A stretch of DNA of 64,000 nucleotides from a virus: positions 62,270 through 126,269 of the IMG/VR virus record IMGVR_UViG_3300026484_000157. One strand, 5' to 3'. The notes beneath the pieces were generated by a model. It was not told the DNA's origin. It made no database searches and saw nothing but the letters and a program-made list of their open reading frames with translations. The position numbers and the translations under genes are program-made. Every line of letters starts with the position of its first letter. The first letter of the stretch is position 1. Below, piece by piece: positions 9,102 through 26,254 of this stretch.

Positions 9102-9926
9102 ATGGCAAACCATAAGATTAAGAAAGAATTTGAAGATTTAGAGATCTTTATCGAGGGTAACAACCCAATTGTTGAATATAAGGGTAAGTTCTATTGGATT
9201 GGAGAGGACAAATGTCCTTTTGATCATATAGACAATGTCAAAATTGAAAATCAAATAATTCCAGCATTTAGAAAATCTATTGGGATTCAACCACCAATAT
9301 CTGAGCCATATAACACTCACATGTCACAACACACTGAGTTCAAAGATGGAATTATATTAGATAAAGAATTCGGTTATCTTCCAAGTAATAGAAATCGAAT
9401 TTACAAGAAAATGCTCAATGACAACATAGATGAGGAATTCATTGTAACCAAATATGACGATGATAACAACCCAACTAGATATTGTATCAAGAATTCTTGT
9501 AACAAATGTGAATACAATGAGATCTGTAAACCAGAATTAGAAGAGATTCAATATGAAGGTCACAACCAATCAATAGTTGTATTTGATATTTCTGCCCAAG
9601 AACCAGTAATTGCAGCAGCAATAGTACATAGGGAGCCACGATGGTTGGAAACATTTAGAAACAGATCACAAAGAGAAGAATTAATTGATGTATTTCTAAA
9701 CATAGTAATTCAAGAAGAATTTGGTCTAGATATTAACCACCATACTGCTTATCAATATTGGGAATTCTTGGAATATATCGTACTAAATGAGGAACTGCTT
9801 AGTAGTTTAATCGATATGAATAATTCCTTTTATAGAATCAGAGCTAATGAGGAAGTTCCAGAATTAGAAGAGCAGATTAACTTCATGATAGACAAATATA
9901 AAGAATTTCTTAAAAGGTATAAATAA
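9102..9926 (+). CDS. Family A DNA polymerase fragment carrying palm motif A
   Basis: SIVVFDISAQEPVIAAAIVHREPRWLETFRN resembles the PolA pattern D.SQIE.R..A....D..L...F; preceded by a Cys cluster. Confidence 0.65.
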   Translation: MANHKIKKEFEDLEIFIEGNNPIVEYKGKFYWIGEDKCPFDHIDNVKIENQIIPAFRKSIGIQPPISEPYNTHMSQHTEFKDGIILDKEFGYLPSNRNRIYKKMLNDNIDEEFIVTKYDDDNNPTRYCIKNSCNKCEYNEICKPELEEIQYEGHNQSIVVFDISAQEPVIAAAIVHREPRWLETFRNRSQREELIDVFLNIVIQEEFGLDINHHTAYQYWEFLEYIVLNEELLSSLIDMNNSFYRIRANEEVPELEEQINFMIDKYKEFLKRYK

Positions 9927-13746: not shown

Positions 13747-14145
13747 ATGGAAAATAATACAGCAATCCAACTTTCAGAACTACACAAACTAATGGAGATA
13801 AAAGATCAGCTTTCTAAAATGAAAGTATCAGAGCTAAATAACATTCTCATAGATAAAACTGCTGATTTAATGGTTAATGCAGATCTTAGTCAAATGGAAT
13901 ATGCAAAACATATTCAAAATGAAATTAATTCGCTTGTAACTGTAACTGCTCCACTTTCTGCTAAGCAAATATCAGAGTTGCCTATTAAAACTATAGTATC
14001 ATATGTAAAGGCATATTATGTAGTTACTAAAATTGACTGGAATAAAAATTATAGTGATGATGATGCAATGATTGATGTTGATTTCGCTTTTTATTCAGGA
14101 TTTACTGCAGAATTCTCAGAATTTGTAACTGGTATAATGGACTAA
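13747..14145 (+). CDS. Hypothetical protein
   Basis: Promoter and SD upstream. Confidence 0.6.
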   Translation: MENNTAIQLSELHKLMEIKDQLSKMKVSELNNILIDKTADLMVNADLSQMEYAKHIQNEINSLVTVTAPLSAKQISELPIKTIVSYVKAYYVVTKIDWNKNYSDDDAMIDVDFAFYSGFTAEFSEFVTGIMD

Positions 14146-14149
14146 CATT

Positions 14150-16018
14150 ATGGCTGATGTTTATTCTCTTGAAAAAGGTCTGGATCATCTTTATCCAGAA
14201 TATCAACTACAATATAAAGATAATATTGATGGGTTTAACAAGACATTTAATCCATCAATGATTGATGTGAATAAAACTATGTTCAAGAAATCTATGGAAA
14301 TGATAGAGCATCATAAATGGATGAAAGAATGTAAATTCACACTAGCAACATATACTGATCCAAAAGAGGATTATGAATTAGATATTGAAAAGTTTGACAA
14401 CATTGATCAGCTAATTGCTCTAATAGACGACCGATGTGAAATGCAAGACCCAGAGGATAACCCAGTCCTAAAAGAGCCAAAGAAAATTGTCGCATTCGAT
14501 TTAGAAACAACTGGTCTTAGAAACAGACATCAGAGAATTGGTGGTAAAAAAGAGTCACAAGTAGGTATTGTTGGAATATGTGTTGCATATTCTGAAACTG
14601 AGGGTTATTATATACCAATTAAACATAATGAGTTAGATGGCATTAAGAATTGGACTATTCAAGATGCAGTTAAGCTTATCAATTATTTCCAACAAGATAA
14701 CCATCTGGTAATATGGCACAATGCAATATACGATTTATTTGTAAGTATATCATCAGGTGTAACTTTGAATAAATCAATGAACCATGATACCTATTTATTA
14801 TGGAAGATGACATTTGAGGAAGAATTTAGCAATCTATTTCAATACGGACTAAAGCTCTTATCAGAAAGATTCCTTAAAAGAAAAATGCAGACAATTAACG
14901 ATCTGCTTGGTGTTGATGCGAAAGCACACATAGAATTTCAGAGATTACCATCTGTAAATGCAGTAACCTATGCAGTGTCTGATGCAACTAACACTTATGC
15001 ACTTTGGAAATATCTATTTAGCAAAAAATTCAGAAGAAACCCATATACTAAACAGCCAATAGCAACTAGACTGGAAATGCGATCTATCTATGATTCATTA
15101 TCAATGCTAAGTACTGGGATTCCAATAAACACAAGTCATGCAATCCCAATGCTGAAAACAATTTACAGAAGACAAATATTATTACAGAGTAAATTTGACC
15201 AATTGGTAGGTGATGGATTCACAGTAATAACTAGTGATGAAAAATGTGGAATGTATATTGGTAAAACAATAATGGGTGCTTGGGAAGAGTCAGGAAAAGA
15301 CAAAGATCAGGGATATAAATTTTTGGAAGAAAAATTTGGAATGAAGATGACTGTTAGAAATGGTGCAGGTGGAGTGAAAAAAGAGACATTCTCAAATGCT
15401 GATTCAGTTCTTGAAGCATTACTTAAATCTCTCCCAAATATGGATTTCATTAAAGATGAACAGAAGAAATCTTTAACATCAATCATTAAATATATACAAG
15501 CATATCGATCATTAGACCATGAAAGATCTGGATATCTTGGAATAATAAGATCAGTAACATTGGATGATAGAGGATATCCTTTTGTTCACAACTCGCTGAA
15601 CCTTAATGGTACCGACTGTGTAATAAAAGATACACCAATAAACATAAGAGTTAACAAATCTAATAAGCCAATATCCACGACGATGGACAAGCTAGATAGA
15701 TATTGTGATTATGATGATCTTGAGGGCGAATATGAGTTTAATGAATACATAGAAATTGAAACTATTGATGGCTGGGTACATATAACTCATTTTGTTACTA
15801 AACATAAAGACACAATTGAAATATCAACTAAATCAAGATCTATTGGTGTAGCAACTAGACATAGATTCATGAATGAAAATGACAGATGGATATATGCTAA
15901 TGAATTGAAAATTGGGGATTTTGTCAAAACAATAGATGGTTATGAAGAGGTTACAAAGATAATCAATTTAAAAGGACAAATGACATATGATATTGTCACC
16001 AACCACAAACAATTATAA
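14150..16018 (+). CDS. polA: Family A DNA polymerase N-part (3'-5' exonuclease plus thumb) fused to split-intein N-half
   Basis: ExoI AFDLETTG, ExoII WHNAIYD, YGLKLLS, ExoIII YAVSDA; LNLNGTD followed by intein block A CVIKDT. Confidence 0.88.
   Translation: MADVYSLEKGLDHLYPEYQLQYKDNIDGFNKTFNPSMIDVNKTMFKKSMEMIEHHKWMKECKFTLATYTDPKEDYELDIEKFDNIDQLIALIDDRCEMQDPEDNPVLKEPKKIVAFDLETTGLRNRHQRIGGKKESQVGIVGICVAYSETEGYYIPIKHNELDGIKNWTIQDAVKLINYFQQDNHLVIWHNAIYDLFVSISSGVTLNKSMNHDTYLLWKMTFEEEFSNLFQYGLKLLSERFLKRKMQTINDLLGVDAKAHIEFQRLPSVNAVTYAVSDATNTYALWKYLFSKKFRRNPYTKQPIATRLEMRSIYDSLSMLSTGIPINTSHAIPMLKTIYRRQILLQSKFDQLVGDGFTVITSDEKCGMYIGKTIMGAWEESGKDKDQGYKFLEEKFGMKMTVRNGAGGVKKETFSNADSVLEALLKSLPNMDFIKDEQKKSLTSIIKYIQAYRSLDHERSGYLGIIRSVTLDDRGYPFVHNSLNLNGTDCVIKDTPINIRVNKSNKPISTTMDKLDRYCDYDDLEGEYEFNEYIEIETIDGWVHITHFVTKHKDTIEISTKSRSIGVATRHRFMNENDRWIYANELKIGDFVKTIDGYEEVTKIINLKGQMTYDIVTNHKQL
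15617..16015 (+). mobile_element. Split intein N-fragment (133 aa)
   Basis: Block A Cys1; block B VATRHRF; W..A.EL..GD; start of block F TYDI; then stop with no HN terminus. Confidence 0.85.
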
Positions 16019-16835
16019 GACAATAAAATCATATACAAATGGCTTCACAAATATAAAGAAATTTGTGAAGCTACTACACACTAATAAAGGTTACAACTTT
16101 AAGAGATACAACTTCATGTATCCAATCAGATTCAAGATAGTTCTGTTCTTATTCATAATGAGGGAGCAGAACTCAATATATAAGTATAAAATTCCAGAAA
16201 ACTGTAAAATGAGATATGATACTGATAAAATCATAATAACATGTCCATTTCATGGAGACTTCAGTCAAAGAATAATAAAACACATAAGTGGTAATGGTTG
16301 CCCAAAATGTGCATCAAATATACGGCTGACAAATGAAGAATTCGACTCGAGATTGAAGTTAATAGATAAAAGTTTGATAAGATTAGATGAATATATTTCA
16401 ATGGAACATGGACTAGATATAAAATGTATGAGATGTGGAGATATATTTAATAAAACTCCAAATATATTATTATATGGTAATAGTGGATGTAGTGTATGCA
16501 GATCTAAAGAATCTAAAGGTTCATTAGAAATTTCACATCAACTAAATCTATTCAAAGTAAGGTATATTAAAGAATATAGATTCAAGGATATAGCAAGAAT
16601 GCCATTTGATTTTTATTTGCCAGATTATAATATATGCATCGAATATGATGGGGAACAACACTTCACATATAATAATCCATTTAGTTCGTTAGTAGGAAAT
16701 ACTATTAAAAATGACCAAATCAAGAACAATTTCTGTGCTAAGAACAATATCAAATTAATCAGGATACCCTATACAAGTTATAAGGATATAAGATTAATAA
16801 TAGTAACAATAAAGGACAACAATGAAAAGATATGA
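15987..16835 (+). CDS. Free-standing putative homing endonuclease (Zn ribbons plus Vsr/DUF559-like nuclease)
   Basis: CPFHG.F.Q...H..G.GCPKC, second CxxC pair, FDFYLP...IEYDGEQHF, D..KN..C..NNIKLIRIPY; lies between the intein halves. Confidence 0.82.
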   Translation: MILSPTTNNYKTIKSYTNGFTNIKKFVKLLHTNKGYNFKRYNFMYPIRFKIVLFLFIMREQNSIYKYKIPENCKMRYDTDKIIITCPFHGDFSQRIIKHISGNGCPKCASNIRLTNEEFDSRLKLIDKSLIRLDEYISMEHGLDIKCMRCGDIFNKTPNILLYGNSGCSVCRSKESKGSLEISHQLNLFKVRYIKEYRFKDIARMPFDFYLPDYNICIEYDGEQHFTYNNPFSSLVGNTIKNDQIKNNFCAKNNIKLIRIPYTSYKDIRLIIVTIKDNNEKI

Positions 16836-17115
16836 TTATATTGCAAATGGGTTTGTTTGCCATAACACTGGACGGTATTCCAATGCTAAAACAAGATTTA
16901 ATAGATTAACTATCAATGTCACAAAAACTGGTAAAGTCAATATAAAATTTAAAGATTCATCTATCCTACCAAATATGCAAGGACTATCAGGTAGACCATA
17001 TATTACGAAACCTGCTAAACAACTTAAGTCTATTCCAATATCTATCGAGCAAGACATAACAAGTTTAAATGATAAGGTTGAAGAGTTATTCAGAGAAGAA
17101 ATACTAAAATTATAA
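16822..17115 (+). CDS. polA: Split-intein C-fragment (15 aa) plus PolA C-extein (TGRYS...PNMQ)
   Basis: Own SD (AAAGGACAACAATG); MKRYDYIANGFVCHN then Thr+1; TGRYSN and PNMQ match PolA TGRLSS..PNLQ. Confidence 0.85.
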   Translation: MKRYDYIANGFVCHNTGRYSNAKTRFNRLTINVTKTGKVNIKFKDSSILPNMQGLSGRPYITKPAKQLKSIPISIEQDITSLNDKVEELFREEILKL

Positions 17116-17136
17116 TAATCAAGAAGGATAACAACA

Positions 17137-19440
17137 ATGAAATTAGATGAGTTTCAACAAAAGATAGTTGATAGCAACCAAGATCAATCAACTCTAGTTA
17201 CTATTACGGCAGGTGCAGGATGTGTAGCATATGACACCCCAATTGTAGTAAAAATAAAAGATAACATACCACAAGATGTTTATTATAAGCTTTCCAAAAT
17301 ATTAAATGATAAAATGATAACCACAATAGAAATTTCGAAGTTATTCGAAATCAAGGATCTTCTTGAATATATAGAAATAGACACACCTGATGGTTGGCAA
17401 CCGATAGATGATGTGTTTGAAACTGGTGATAAAAAGTCATATAACATAACGACTGAGACTGGTGATATAACTGTTTCTGAAGATCATTGGTTATTAGACA
17501 ACAACAATAACTGGTCTTCTGTCGCTTCGCTTCATGTTGATGATATAATACAAACCAGAGATGGGAACGAGAAGATTATATCGAAGAAATCAATTGGTAC
17601 AATAAAAACTATGGACATTACTGTTGGACATGAGAATCATAGATATTACACTCAAAATATAATATCACACAACAGTGGTAAAAGCACTGTTTTCGCAAAT
17701 AAAATAGCTAGGTTAATTTTAGAAGGTCATGCAAAACCTGATGAGATAATAACACTAACCTTCACAAATAAAGCAGCACGGGATATTAAAAGTAAAATAA
17801 AAGCACTACTTCCAAAGGGTGCTGAACTTCCACATGTATCAACAATTCATAGCTTATTTATCAAACTACTAAGAGATTTCAAAGTCAATCCTATTGTAAT
17901 GAATGAATGGGGCAATATTTTAACTTTGAGATCAATTATTGAACAACATTACCAATTTGATACAAAAGGTGAGCTTACTGCATTTACTAGAGATATTCTT
18001 GCTTATGTAGATCAATATCAATTATCTGCTCCTGATATCAACATTGATGACTGGAAATTATCTGATTATGTTGAAGATTGTACAATCACAAGTAAAAAAT
18101 TTAACAAAATTTACAAAGAATATGATAAGTTTAAGAGGGAGAAGAATTTATGGTCGTATAACGATTTAATTTCATCTAGAGTAAAAGAAGTAATCGATTT
18201 TAATAAAATTAATAGTTCAACCAAATATTTATTCAATGATGAGGCTCATGATGAGACATTGGCAGAATTACTTCTAATAAGAGATATAGCAAGTCAAAAT
18301 ATCTTATATAACATACAAGATAACTGCCAAGAAATTTATGGGTGGAGATTTAGTCGTGCTGATCTATTAGCAGATAAATCCTTTTGGGCAGATCACTTCA
18401 ATAAATATGAAGAGTACAAACTTCTGAAAAATTATAGATCAACTGAAAATATATTGAAAGTGTCGAATTTATATAGATCACATCTGGATGATATCCAATT
18501 AATACCCACTAAAGAAAACTTGAAGGGATCAGTTAAAATATCTCAGGTGGAAATGGAAACTCATGAAGGTAAATATATCGCAGTTGAGATAAAGAAATTA
18601 CTGGAAGAGGGTACTGCTCCAAAAGACATAACAATATTGGTAAGATCAAATATGTTCATTAAATCAATACTTGAGCCACACTTAATAGAATCAAATATAC
18701 CTTACACAATTGATACTCCAAAATCAAAAAAGAAGATGTTTGAATCTCCAATAAACAAGATATTCCTATCATTTATGGAAATATATTCGAATAACGAGAA
18801 TTTACTAAGCATAATCTCAATATGTGATTATTATATTGGTGTTGGTGCAGGATCTAAAAAGACTCTAATGGATTCATTTATTAACACTTCAATGTTAACA
18901 CCAGATAAGAAATTCGATAACATAAGATACACTTTTAATAACATATGTGAGTTTTCAACTCAATATTCATCTGCTTCAAAATTGCCAGTAATACTAGATT
19001 ACTTTGAATCTTTAATAAGACAATTCATAAAAACTTCTGAATACAATGAAAATAAGATCAATCTCATAAGAAAAACTATCACAAATTATGTGTATACAAT
19101 CTATGAAGATTATCCATCTTACACAATCCATGAGATTTTTGCTGAAATTATAACACAAATTGACTCATTTGAAGATGATGCTATGAATAAGGTTAAAATC
19201 ATGACATATTATGGTGCAAAAGGATTATCACTTCCATATGTATTTGTATCAGATATGTCATTAAAAGCACCTAAATCGAATAGTGATAGTGACAATTCAT
19301 TATATGTAGCATTATCTAGGGCTGAAACAAGAATGTATATTGTTTCATCAAGTATAAAAATTAACAGAAGTTTTGGCAAAATGAAACAAAATATCCCATC
19401 AATATGGACTAAAACATATAACAAGCTTGTTGGTGGTTAA
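17137..19440 (+). CDS. uvrD: UvrD/PcrA-like SF1 helicase with cis mini-intein
   Basis: Spliced P-loop AGAG|SGKS, LTFTNKAA, STIHS, DEAHD, NYRS, AKGL, LYVALSRA. Confidence 0.9.
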   Translation: MKLDEFQQKIVDSNQDQSTLVTITAGAGCVAYDTPIVVKIKDNIPQDVYYKLSKILNDKMITTIEISKLFEIKDLLEYIEIDTPDGWQPIDDVFETGDKKSYNITTETGDITVSEDHWLLDNNNNWSSVASLHVDDIIQTRDGNEKIISKKSIGTIKTMDITVGHENHRYYTQNIISHNSGKSTVFANKIARLILEGHAKPDEIITLTFTNKAARDIKSKIKALLPKGAELPHVSTIHSLFIKLLRDFKVNPIVMNEWGNILTLRSIIEQHYQFDTKGELTAFTRDILAYVDQYQLSAPDINIDDWKLSDYVEDCTITSKKFNKIYKEYDKFKREKNLWSYNDLISSRVKEVIDFNKINSSTKYLFNDEAHDETLAELLLIRDIASQNILYNIQDNCQEIYGWRFSRADLLADKSFWADHFNKYEEYKLLKNYRSTENILKVSNLYRSHLDDIQLIPTKENLKGSVKISQVEMETHEGKYIAVEIKKLLEEGTAPKDITILVRSNMFIKSILEPHLIESNIPYTIDTPKSKKKMFESPINKIFLSFMEIYSNNENLLSIISICDYYIGVGAGSKKTLMDSFINTSMLTPDKKFDNIRYTFNNICEFSTQYSSASKLPVILDYFESLIRQFIKTSEYNENKINLIRKTITNYVYTIYEDYPSYTIHEIFAEIITQIDSFEDDAMNKVKIMTYYGAKGLSLPYVFVSDMSLKAPKSNSDSDNSLYVALSRAETRMYIVSSSIKINRSFGKMKQNIPSIWTKTYNKLVGG
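17221..17673 (+). mobile_element. Cis mini-intein (151 aa, no endonuclease) in Walker A
   Basis: Starts CVAYDT, block B VSEDH, ends YYTQNIISHN followed by Ser. Confidence 0.92.
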
Positions 19441-19507
19441 TTTATAGTTAAAACTTCTAAATCCTGATTTTATAAGAACATAACAAATTAAAACTCAGGA
19501 TAACAAC

Positions 19508-20398
19508 ATGTCAGAATTTAAAAAACTAACACTTAGACAACTAGGCTTCATGGATCTATGGATGGAGACGATCAGAGAAAATAATAGAGTGAACCATAAA
19601 ATTGCACAAAGTTCAATATATTGGGGAACTCATATAGATACAACGACTGATTTCTTGTCGTTATTATCAATGTCAGAGGAGCTACCAACATTCGATTACA
19701 ATAGAATGACATTATCACACATAATAGACTCATTAGTAGAAGTCAATGCAATCATAGTATTAGATCCAATCAAGATGATATATAAAGTAACTAACGATAT
19801 GATAATACATATGTCAACAAAGAAAACAAGATTCGAGAGAGGGCAAGATAAAATATTCACAGCTGTCAATCTTAAAATATTTAGAGATTGGGTTAACAGC
19901 ACAAGAATAACTGGAGATACTATAGTTAGTTACAACTCATTCATGGACTCAACATCTGATGAAACATTTAGAGAAATTAAGGAATCTCTTAAAGGCTGTA
20001 AAGAACATAAGAAATTCCTCAAAGGTAAAAGCCAAGAGTTCTTAGACAAATATGAAGATGGATTTTTAGCAAAAATGTCCTATAGCCATCTGAGATACCT
20101 TGTAACCAGATTAAGCGATGCTAAGCTACTGACTAAATATAAACCAAAAGGAACAAGAAACATTTATACAGTTACCCCAGAATTTGTTGATGTATTAGGA
20201 AGACATAAAATCGCTTTTGCTGAAACTCCAGTTTATACTTATATAAAACCAAAAAAGAAGAGAGTAAAAGAGATCGAGCTAAAAACTGAGGATCTAGATA
20301 CATTAATAGAAGAACTGATGAATATGAGAAGTGGTAATTCTAACAAATGTAGAATAGATGCTGATAATACCATCATTGAGTTAAGTTTCAAACAATAG
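19508..20398 (+). CDS. Hypothetical protein, possible winged-helix repeats
   Basis: Behind conserved promoter and leader; two L..L....+..Y.VT segments. Confidence 0.55.
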   Translation: MSEFKKLTLRQLGFMDLWMETIRENNRVNHKIAQSSIYWGTHIDTTTDFLSLLSMSEELPTFDYNRMTLSHIIDSLVEVNAIIVLDPIKMIYKVTNDMIIHMSTKKTRFERGQDKIFTAVNLKIFRDWVNSTRITGDTIVSYNSFMDSTSDETFREIKESLKGCKEHKKFLKGKSQEFLDKYEDGFLAKMSYSHLRYLVTRLSDAKLLTKYKPKGTRNIYTVTPEFVDVLGRHKIAFAETPVYTYIKPKKKRVKEIELKTEDLDTLIEELMNMRSGNSNKCRIDADNTIIELSFKQ

Positions 20399-25270: not shown

Positions 25271-26254
25271 ATGACAAATACACTACATGACCCAAGATTA
25301 ACCGATGAACAGAAAAAATTATACGATGAATTTTCTGTTAATGAAATGTTACCAGTAGAAGAACATGAAACTCCAATTGGTAACATACTGTTCAAAAGAA
25401 TAGATAAATATAAACCAGTTGATAACATCCATGTTGGTGGTGGAAAAACTTTACAGTCTGTAACATTGATGATAAATAACATCAATCAAATCAGAGACCA
25501 TTTTGATTCAAATGTTTCAACAGCAGCAGCACTGACATCACCTCAACATCATTTGGTATCTGGTGTTGCCAAGAAACTAGGATTGAATTCATTTGTGGGT
25601 ATACAAGGGACTCCTGAGAGACTACCAATCATTTTAGAAAAATACTCAATGATAAAAGCAGCACAATATTATGATGCGACGATATTACCAGTTACTAAAG
25701 CAGCATACCAAGTTGTAATAGAATCTAGAATGAATAAACAATTAGCAAAAGATGGTATAAAGCATTTCTTTATCAAATTCGGTATTAACATTGATAAAGA
25801 CAGGGATGCAATTCTAGGATCAATAGCTAACCAAGTTGAAAACATTCCTGATGAATTAGATCACCTAATCATCCCAAGTGGATCATGTCTATCTGCAGCA
25901 GCAATTATTAATGGCATTCATAAATTTAAAAAGAAAATCAAAAATATTCATGTAATTCAAATAGCAGGTGGCTCTCATGCCAAAAATATAGATGTAAATA
26001 TGCCAGTATTGGCTCACTATAAATATCAATTCCACTTAATAACTGATATCCCATATAAAGAACATAGATATTATACTATTGGTAAAGATGATCAAGAATT
26101 TCAAATCGATCCAGTATATGAGGGTAAGGCTTATGAATATCTTCTGAACAATCATAAAGAGATGGGAATAAAACCAGATGACAAGACACTATTTTGGGTT
26201 GTCGGATCGACTGTATCAACTAGAAAACACTTTGGTGATTCATTAGGATACTAA
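25271..26254 (+). CDS. PLP-dependent ACC deaminase / D-cysteine desulfhydrase-like enzyme
   Basis: FKRID...GGGK (PLP Lys), SPQ, IPSGSCLS, DPVYEGKA, LFWVVG. Confidence 0.78.
   Translation: MTNTLHDPRLTDEQKKLYDEFSVNEMLPVEEHETPIGNILFKRIDKYKPVDNIHVGGGKTLQSVTLMINNINQIRDHFDSNVSTAAALTSPQHHLVSGVAKKLGLNSFVGIQGTPERLPIILEKYSMIKAAQYYDATILPVTKAAYQVVIESRMNKQLAKDGIKHFFIKFGINIDKDRDAILGSIANQVENIPDELDHLIIPSGSCLSAAAIINGIHKFKKKIKNIHVIQIAGGSHAKNIDVNMPVLAHYKYQFHLITDIPYKEHRYYTIGKDDQEFQIDPVYEGKAYEYLLNNHKEMGIKPDDKTLFWVVGSTVSTRKHFGDSLGY

Follow-up and report, generated by a model that had tools for sequence, protein, structure and literature searches.

A putative naturally split intein with a 15-residue C-fragment in the DNA polymerase gene of an uncultured phage

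In the fractured genes described by Dassa, London, Stoddard, Schueler-Furman and Pietrokovski (Dassa et al., 2009; PMC2677866), the N-terminal part of a host gene with an intein N-fragment, an endonuclease gene, and an intein C-fragment with the rest of the host gene follow one another on one strand; in the text of that paper, the N-fragments measure 88-105 amino acids (aa) and the C-fragments, which carry both C-terminal motifs, 33-54 aa. Natural atypical splits, namely VidaL, AceL-TerL, GOS-TerL and PolB16, are listed with N-fragments of 15-37 aa (PMC13014065, PMC11766414). As far as the texts of this 2026 paper and 2025 review go, the natural split sites described are either canonical (N-fragment of ~100-130 aa, C-fragment of ~35-50 aa) or near the N-terminus, and cuts close to the C-terminus (S11, 6 aa) are given as artificial. 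Here we analyse a locus that combines the fractured layout with a putative intein C-fragment of only 15 aa. It lies in a 64,000-nucleotide (nt) stretch, hereafter the window, of the virus record IMGVR_UViG_3300026484_000157, where it interrupts a gene for part of a DNA polymerase. The fragment lengths that a first-pass annotation of this DNA had given for known systems agree with the published ranges.

How does this locus compare? As in the fractured genes of Dassa et al. (2009; PMC2677866), the host gene belongs to DNA metabolism, the phage is uncultured, and the N-part, the endonuclease gene and the C-part are arranged in the same order on one strand (Table 1). The 3' end of the endonuclease ORF (open reading frame) overlaps the start of the downstream gene by 14 nt, compared with 6-69 base pairs (bp) in 15 of the published loci. 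In contrast to these, the fragments are 133 and 15 aa long and the break lies inside block F, so that the split is not a canonical one; the one unusual case in the text of that paper, a terminase, is the opposite, with a C-part of 122 aa. The spacer ahead of the endonuclease gene also differs, being 27-51 nt in the published loci and here either 97 nt, counted from an ATG at 16116, or replaced by an overlap, if the gene starts at 15987. Judged by its sequence, the locus is thus a fractured gene as defined by Dassa et al. (2009), new in the length of its C-fragment and in its break site. A search of the open literature, with subscription papers and supplements (including the fragment lengths in Table S1 and Figure S1 of PMC2677866) outside its scope, found no published natural short C-fragment.

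Table 1. Features of the interrupted polymerase gene and its surroundings, in positions of the window.
Feature	Position	Strand	Remarks
N gene	14150-16018	+	622-aa ORF = 489-aa N-extein + 133-aa intein N-fragment
N-extein: 3'-5' exonuclease and N-terminal part of family A DNA polymerase	14150..15616	+	489 aa, C-terminus NGTD
Putative intein N-fragment	15617..16018	+	133 aa coded by 15617-16015, Cys1 ... TYDIVTNHKQL, plus TAA
Perfect 11-bp inverted repeat (hairpin)	16042..16071	+	find_repeats I13 and terminator-like scan
Free-standing endonuclease gene	15987..16835	+	longest ORF, 282 aa; start uncertain
Shine-Dalgarno sequence AAGGA	16812..16816	+	5 nt ahead of the C-gene ATG; falls within the 3' end of the endonuclease ORF; read from the sequence
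C gene	16822..17115	+	97-aa ORF = 15-aa C-fragment + 82-aa C-extein
Putative intein C-fragment	16822..16866	+	15 aa, MKRYDYIANGFVCHN; 12-residue core = last two strands
C-extein, TGRYS ... PNMQG ... EILKL, with stop	16867..17115	+	82 aa; C-terminal tail of the polymerase N-subunit
Contiguous mini-intein in the P-loop of a UvrD-like helicase	17221..17673	+	151 aa; paralogue of the split intein; helicase gene 17137-19440

The record comprises 126,269 bases, at a CheckV completeness of 100, and the window makes up its second half (C1:62270-126269). Within it, the 622-aa ORF reads ...HNSLNLNGTD, enters the putative intein with a Cys codon (TGT, 15617-15619) and continues to ...MTYDIVTNHKQL, where it stops with TAA at 16016-16018. 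The 97-aa ORF begins with MKRYDYIANGFVCHN and goes on with TGRYSNAKT..., so that 15617-16866 is exactly the span from the Cys1 codon through the codon of the terminal Asn. The endonuclease ORF overlaps the N gene by 32 nt if it is started at 15987. Since the N-gene, endonuclease and C-gene ORFs lie in three different frames, a single sequencing error or indel cannot fuse them. A Logan contig of run X1 is identical over 14100-19500, X1 probably being the source sample, so that this contig represents another assembly pipeline and not independent data. Contigs of two other studies bridge the junction between endonuclease and C-fragment (X2, 16641-16907, 2 differences; X4, 16795-17030, 0 differences), and no joints are reported in the contigs of the runs compared (X1-X4). 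Of the pieces listed, only X1 spans the stop at 16016, and independent support for it comes from relatives with the same stop point, discussed below. The four elements from which the first-pass annotation had started, an interrupted PolA motif, a 133-aa N-fragment, an out-of-frame endonuclease ORF and a gene led by a Shine-Dalgarno sequence, were recovered base for base. An assembly error as the source of the stop and the frame change, which it had named as one of the ways in which it could be wrong, is not borne out by the three frames, the contigs or these relatives.

What protein is interrupted? The N-extein matches Pfam DNA_pol_A_exo1 (E 3.1e-07) and, with residues 31-488, the DNA polymerase family phrog_17 (E 5.6e-25, profile positions 616-970). 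An exhaustive HMMER search yielded 335 relatives at E<=1e-3, 43 of them at E<=1e-30, the typical one being ~570 aa long, aligning with residues ~30-490 (up to 489-491) and extending ~85 residues beyond. In the intein-less relative P0003 (606 aa, 45% identical), the sequence ...NNSLNISGTD/TGRYSNAKT... is continuous and ends ...EERFKIQLTSV (here and below, a slash marks an insertion point or the point that corresponds to it). The 82-aa C-extein is 49% identical to the tail of P0003 and aligns over the full length with the tails of seven intein-less relatives and with that of the small protein P0152, described below. The GTD/T site is contiguous in seven IMG/VR loci (L084-L089, L091), and locus L090, too, is without an intein there. 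The colinearity of intein-less relatives, together with the aligned tails, therefore indicates that the ORFs at 14150-16018 and 16822-17115 encode two parts of one conserved protein, with GTD/T as the insertion point. Splicing would join 489 and 82 residues to a product of 571 aa with a native GTD-TGR junction.

This protein corresponds to the N-terminal portion of a polymerase. The single PF00476 match in the record (C1:17409-17819) falls in a 260-aa ORF (C1:17268-18050; L001:1360-2142) ~59 kb from the N-subunit gene, which covers phrog_17 positions 1037-1171 and PF00476 positions 199-326 and represents a palm/fingers part. From what is known of E. coli Pol I, motif A would be expected at the start of this ORF. 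Another candidate site of motif A, the ORF at 9102-9926 of the window, gave no polymerase match in Pfam or PHROGs. The palm/fingers gene itself is without intein ends. There is no match to the family B polymerase family PF00136 in this record, rated 100% complete; with one PF00476 match and zero PF00136 matches, the split gene belongs to the only polymerase found in the phage. The ~570-aa relatives of the N-subunit all stop at the same point, and from their sequences the two-gene polymerase looks like a conserved trait of the family. The proposal of the first-pass annotation that the intein reassembles PolA thus holds insofar as the two ORFs form one conserved protein, colinear with P0003; it has to be narrowed in that the product is the N-terminal subunit only. 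In deposited phages, a tblastn search with the 622-aa protein returned 122 records, all below 60% identity and none covering 80% of the query, and no listed match extends beyond residue 354, that is, none reaches into the intein.

Substantiating an intein in the insertion is its likeness to the contiguous mini-intein in the helicase gene just downstream, the alignment that the first-pass annotation had proposed as a check. The N-fragment is 31% identical to this cis intein (44/142; pairwise E 9e-18, tblastn E 1.6e-11), in an alignment that spans Cys1 to TYDIVTNHK over TMDITVGHE and stops within the first half of block F. A profile built from three N-fragments (this one and those of the relatives P0004 and P0022) matches the VidaL intein 6vgv_A (E 5.4e-06, positions 42-128 of the profile on 40-126 of the chain); the block B motif Ala-x-x-His is common to both, His82 (in ATRH) aligning with the VidaL His. 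When the helicase paralogue is modelled with AlphaFold (9-row alignment, pLDDT 85.8), the best match of the model in the PDB is VidaL (6vgv; TM 0.79/0.82, E 1e-10), other inteins following; the model matches 60 PDB chains at E<=0.001, and all ~37 that are listed are intein or intein-like (BIL) domains. The inserted element is best explained, on these similarities, as a VidaL-like class-1 mini-intein. VidaL itself is described as an active intein (PMC13014065). The helicase intein sits in the context GAG/C...SHN/SGKST, and the two adjacent replication genes thus hold two related inteins, 31% identical. A further ORF in the window, at 25271-26254, was considered as a third intein (tblastn E 0.032) and rejected; it displayed no intein features on reading, and its only Pfam match is a weak one to PALP.

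Most residues expected of such an intein are in place, the second His of block F, discussed below, being the exception. Cys1 follows directly on NGTD and is invariant in all three N-fragments, whose alignment (A1) contains 39 invariant columns, including C1, H82, D125 and H130. The C-fragment ends ...CHN/T (16861-16869), the corresponding end in P0152 being ...HHN/T. Cys1, the block B His, the block F Asp (Asp125), the terminal His-Asn pair and Thr+1 are therefore all present.

Where, then, is the intein broken? At its C-terminal end, the paralogue model comprises a strand (121-135), a loop (136-140), a strand (141-144), a turn and a last strand (147-150). By pairwise alignment the end of the N-fragment maps into the loop 136-140, and the core of the C-fragment, YDYIANGFVCHN, corresponds by position to paralogue residues 140-151 and carries the strands 141-144 and 147-150; the C-fragment would thus consist of the final beta-hairpin only. 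On the model, the intein is interrupted inside block F, in the loop that precedes the last two strands; the N-fragment retains blocks A and B together with the first block F strand. As the 12-residue core covers two modelled strands, this is not a split of the S11 type, in which the C-fragment is the final strand only (~6 aa).

A comparator within the same gene is provided by L090, an IMG/VR locus (L090:4965-8161) with a 38% identical N-extein, in which the gene is fractured at another intein site (near ...YIYA/C). L090 is a textbook example of the type of Dassa et al. (2009), with an endonuclease of the same family as that encoded here: a 101-aa N-fragment, a spacer of 46 nt containing TGGTATAAT and AAAGGA, an endonuclease of 349 aa, an overlap of 29 nt, and a canonical 35-aa C-fragment, MKVVSVSPSEEHNVYDIEVNHPNHRFYANGVSVHN, followed by C. 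Residues 1-105 of the N-fragment studied here align with the entire N-fragment of L090, and residues 124-130 (YDIVTNH) with residues 15-21 of its C-fragment, so that the N-fragment includes the counterpart of the first ~21 residues of a canonical C-fragment. This argues that the unusual break is real and not an effect of gene calling. The first-pass annotation had called the split site unusual, and the loop position in the paralogue model, the canonical comparator and the same stop in two diverged lineages bear it out.

The split recurs. Protein P0004 (616 aa, 2 contigs, the longest of 81 kb) reads ...EGTD/CLVAGTP... and ends ...TFDVVTNHSV; P0022 (352 aa, 13 contigs) and its cluster members P0154, P0156 and P0157 read ...EGTD/CLVANTP... 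and end ...TYDVVTNHGI. The N-fragments of P0004 and P0022 are 41% and 47% identical to the one studied here, and their exteins 32-34%; overall, the lineages with this stop point are 41-52% identical in the intein. P0083, an intein-less cousin, shares 82% identity with P0022 in the extein, and a search of small proteins with the P0083 tail led to P0152 (108 aa, 8 contigs) and P0153 (110 aa, 6 contigs). P0152 begins MEQNIEESRQFHYVANGLYHHN, followed by TGRASAQKG..., with 76% identity between its extein and the P0083 tail; in P0152 and P0153, C-fragments of 22 and 24 aa end ...FHYVANGLYHHN ahead of TGR. By these sequences, a second lineage has a separate small gene whose C-fragment, of 22-24 residues, ends in the same hairpin. 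Further searches were less productive: a word-indexed search with the 97-aa protein returned only itself, a 9-row tail profile recovered from 486 candidates only the 97-aa protein and P0152, and scans of viral, JGI metagenome and genome contigs found no related loci for the 622-aa protein, the 97-aa protein, P0004, P0022 or alignment A1.

Other inteins occupy the GTD/T site. P0053 has a contiguous one, ...NGTD/CVIKGT...VYDITVDHENHRYYSNGICSHN followed by TRRYK. P0140 (222 aa) begins inside a VidaL-like intein, approximately at the VidaL short-N split position, and continues ...SHN/TRRYK into the polymerase tail; the start of P0053 resembles that of P0140, at an upstream site. Judging from these proteins, the site may host contiguous, short-N and short-C forms of an intein. 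A scan of the JGI metagenome with P0140 gave 80 loci (L002-L081), essentially all of them other inteins: seven contain the whole intein in one frame (context LAG/C...SHN/TGV), most of the others match only from intein position 18-33, the short-N type, and go on into an extein of ~265 aa, and a short C-piece was found in none of the 80. In P0022, P0154 and P0157, the N-terminus is a canonical 35-aa C-fragment that belongs to a split intein further upstream, and the C-terminal end is formed by the long N-fragment at GTD/T. If read at face value, the polymerase N-subunit of this lineage would need at least three genes and two different trans-splicing reactions.

The layout, the homology, the shared stop and the splicing residues can be seen in the sequences; from them we infer that the two pieces associate and splice, and we consider it probable that the locus encodes a split intein that splices in trans and is naturally cut close to its C-terminus. 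In this scenario, a free-standing endonuclease gene sits within the intein-coding DNA, in the loop before the last two beta-strands and not at the usual position of an endonuclease domain. Two proteins would be made, the N-extein with the 133-aa N-fragment, and the 15-aa C-fragment with the 82-aa C-extein, which starts with Thr. The hairpin of the C-fragment would then dock into a nearly complete HINT domain, and Cys1, the block B His, the block F Asp, the terminal His-Asn and Thr+1 would carry out protein trans-splicing to yield the 571-aa subunit.

The docking was modelled with the N-fragment (3-row alignment) and the 97-aa protein (9-row alignment) as inputs, alongside three controls. The complex reached an ipSAE of 0.75 (runs 0.75, 0.79 and 0.71), compared with 0.01 for the best control; of 80 solved complexes, 58 attain the mark applied to this score, as do 2 of 110 mismatched pairs. 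Between runs, at least 63% of the contacts agree, and the partner has a pLDDT of 45-48. Residues 3-18 of the 97-aa protein contact residues 1-2, 6-9, 82-85, 103-107 and 125-128 of the N-fragment in the modelled interface. The trans-splicing pair of the first-pass annotation is thus supported computationally, by colinearity, homology, residues, recurrence, the complex model and the lack of an intron signal, and splicing follows from these as the probable outcome.

An engineered precedent for such a pair exists. Npu DnaE cut in the loop between strands 10 and 11 (IntN123/IntC15) ligates to ~96% in vivo (Aranko et al., 2009; PMC2664965), and the pair studied here resembles it in its 15-aa C-fragment, short enough for peptide synthesis, and in the break before the last two strands, the strand numberings being presumably equivalent. 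In contrast to these laboratory constructs, which in the text of that paper derive from canonical DnaE inteins, the pair described here is naturally encoded, recurrent and VidaL-like. S11 splits (Lin et al., 2013, cited in PMC11766414) go further, with a 6-aa C-fragment that holds the last strand only, whereas two strands are kept here. With VidaL, the pair has in common the sequence family, as seen in the profile match and the paralogue model, and the principle of one very short fragment docking into a near-complete HINT domain; however, inteins of the VidaL type are cut near the N-terminus (PMC13014065, PMC11766414), and this one near the C-terminus.

Several observations weigh against this interpretation. 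The second His of block F, present in all eight contiguous relatives (alignment A3), is replaced by Tyr here and by Phe in P0152, in an alignment anchored on the NG motif. No Pfam intein family was found at E<=1 and no NCBIfam intein match for the N-fragment at E<=10; the NCBIfam model TIGR01443 (intein_Cterm) aligns residues 6-16 of the 97-aa ORF with model positions 13-24 of 24, at 12.9 bits, below its cut-off of 15.6. The score of the complex model may stem from likeness to solved inteins, and the fold of the partner in it is uncertain. No partner C-fragment was found for P0004, and both the linkage of P0022 with P0152 and the presence of an endonuclease gene in the split relatives are matters that we infer. 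That the N-fragments are more similar than the exteins could reflect horizontal spread of the element. Lastly, short C-fragments are not automatically active: for Ssp DnaE, IntC16 gave ~3% ligation, and IntC9 and IntC6 none (PMC2664965). Set against the Npu result, this indicates that a C-proximal site is workable and not guaranteed.

The endonuclease ORF matches phrog_559, labelled HNH endonuclease (E 4.8e-46), and tblastn finds its relatives in 625 deposited phage records. Pfam gives sub-threshold matches only (DUF5889, DUF2726, a treble-clef finger and DUF723), and a PDB sequence search returned no match at E<=10. Membership in the Vsr-like (PD-(D/E)xK) family typified by I-Bth0305I, to which homing endonucleases of fractured genes belong, is not established by these searches. 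One relative is orf114 of the Lactobacillus phage LP65 (NC_006565.1, 96579-100373), which lies between orf115 and orf113, pieces of the terminase large subunit. In a blastp comparison, the alignment with orf114 starts only at residue 77 of the ORF, which puts the start of the conserved core near 16215. The first aligned segment of the L090 endonuclease begins at residue 52 of the 282-aa ORF; as homology to the N-terminus of the L090 enzyme starts there, the ATG at 16116 is favoured as the start codon. A weak alignment with a relative from a huge phage starts as early as residue 3, as though a first zinc-finger module had been left in degenerate form. The hairpin at 16042-16071 lies between the stop of the N-fragment and this ATG, within the longest endonuclease ORF. 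RNAfold assigns -19.7 kcal/mol to 16016-16120 and extends the 11-bp stem to 13 pairs. It may be an RNA hairpin in the leader of the endonuclease gene or a barrier to transcription or translation; the text of Dassa et al. mentions possible hairpins in the 5' untranslated regions of fractured-gene endonucleases (PMC2677866).

Could the two pieces serve the polymerase without splicing? The docked intein fragments might only hold the 82-aa tail on the N-subunit, non-covalently. Such an assembly is on record for an endonuclease-broken gene, Aeh1 NrdA (PMC3045599, as cited in PMC2677866), and this polymerase already consists of two separately encoded subunits that come together without an intein; the replaced block F His would fit as well. 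However, the catalytic residues named above, from Cys1 to Thr+1, are all present here, C1, H82 and D125 are invariant in three lineages, and HN/T is conserved in P0152, which speaks against a mere clasp. We therefore regard this alternative as unlikely.

Lower still we place a recent breakage, in which an endonuclease gene landed in a contiguous intein and inactivated the subunit, the ORFs now decaying or the 489-aa N-part working without its tail. Free-standing endonuclease genes do enter phage genes, as the 625 records with members of this family illustrate. Yet the same stop point is found in lineages that have diverged as far in the intein as given above, the ORFs are intact, a Shine-Dalgarno sequence and an ATG are placed exactly ahead of the last hairpin, and in another lineage the separate small C gene occurs on 8 + 6 contigs. 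The gene is part of the only polymerase in a genome rated complete, the tail is kept in all ~570-aa relatives, and identity is higher in the N-fragments (41-47%) than in the exteins (32-34%), all of which makes a decaying remnant improbable.

Finally, that the interruption is removed at the level of nucleic acid or translation, by a group I or II intron with an endonuclease ORF or by two frameshifts that fuse the three ORFs into a contiguous intein, is highly improbable: related endonuclease genes do lie between gene pieces in intron-rich phages, as in the terminase gene of LP65, and the overlaps of the endonuclease ORF with both flanks (32 nt if started at 15987, and 14 nt at the 3' end) make frame changes geometrically possible, yet an Rfam scan of 14000-20000 (E<=10) gave three irrelevant matches (E 2.2-8.8) and no intron family, the gap is nearly all endonuclease ORF with at most ~100-140 nt of non-coding sequence left for a ribozyme core, the C-fragment gene is equipped with a Shine-Dalgarno sequence and an ATG of its own, gene calls from independent assemblies are separate proteins with Met before the hairpin, no joined form exists in any contig compared (all runs being on record as DNA), and two +1 shifts would be needed where no obvious slippery site was seen on reading. 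The RNA-level splice that the first-pass annotation had itself put forward as a counter-explanation is thus without an intron signal in the scanned sequence.

Returning to a trans-splicing intein, on balance we also favour a wider evolutionary scenario, in which this locus belongs to a conserved natural family of such inteins whose C-fragment is the final beta-hairpin (a 12-residue core, with 15-24 aa encoded), and which arose when an endonuclease gene invaded an intein at a non-canonical loop. The GTD/T site would then exist with contiguous (P0053), short-N (P0140, as deduced from its start) and short-C forms (this phage, P0004 and P0022/P0152).

Protein engineering makes heavy use of split inteins, and a fragment that can be synthesized lets chemists attach synthetic segments to proteins. 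In the texts considered here, short C-fragments are always products of engineering, and they often perform poorly (PMC2664965). If the interpretation favoured here is right, a naturally evolved pair with a C-fragment of 12-15 residues, retained in several phage lineages, would probably associate and splice without refolding; it would complement the N-side tools of the VidaL type and offer a ready-made, naturally optimised system for the semisynthesis of protein C-termini. For the biology of these phages, it would mean that inteins can be fractured by free-standing endonuclease genes at places other than the canonical site of the endonuclease domain and that, as the models suggest, a single hairpin may suffice in nature for a HINT domain to be rebuilt in trans.

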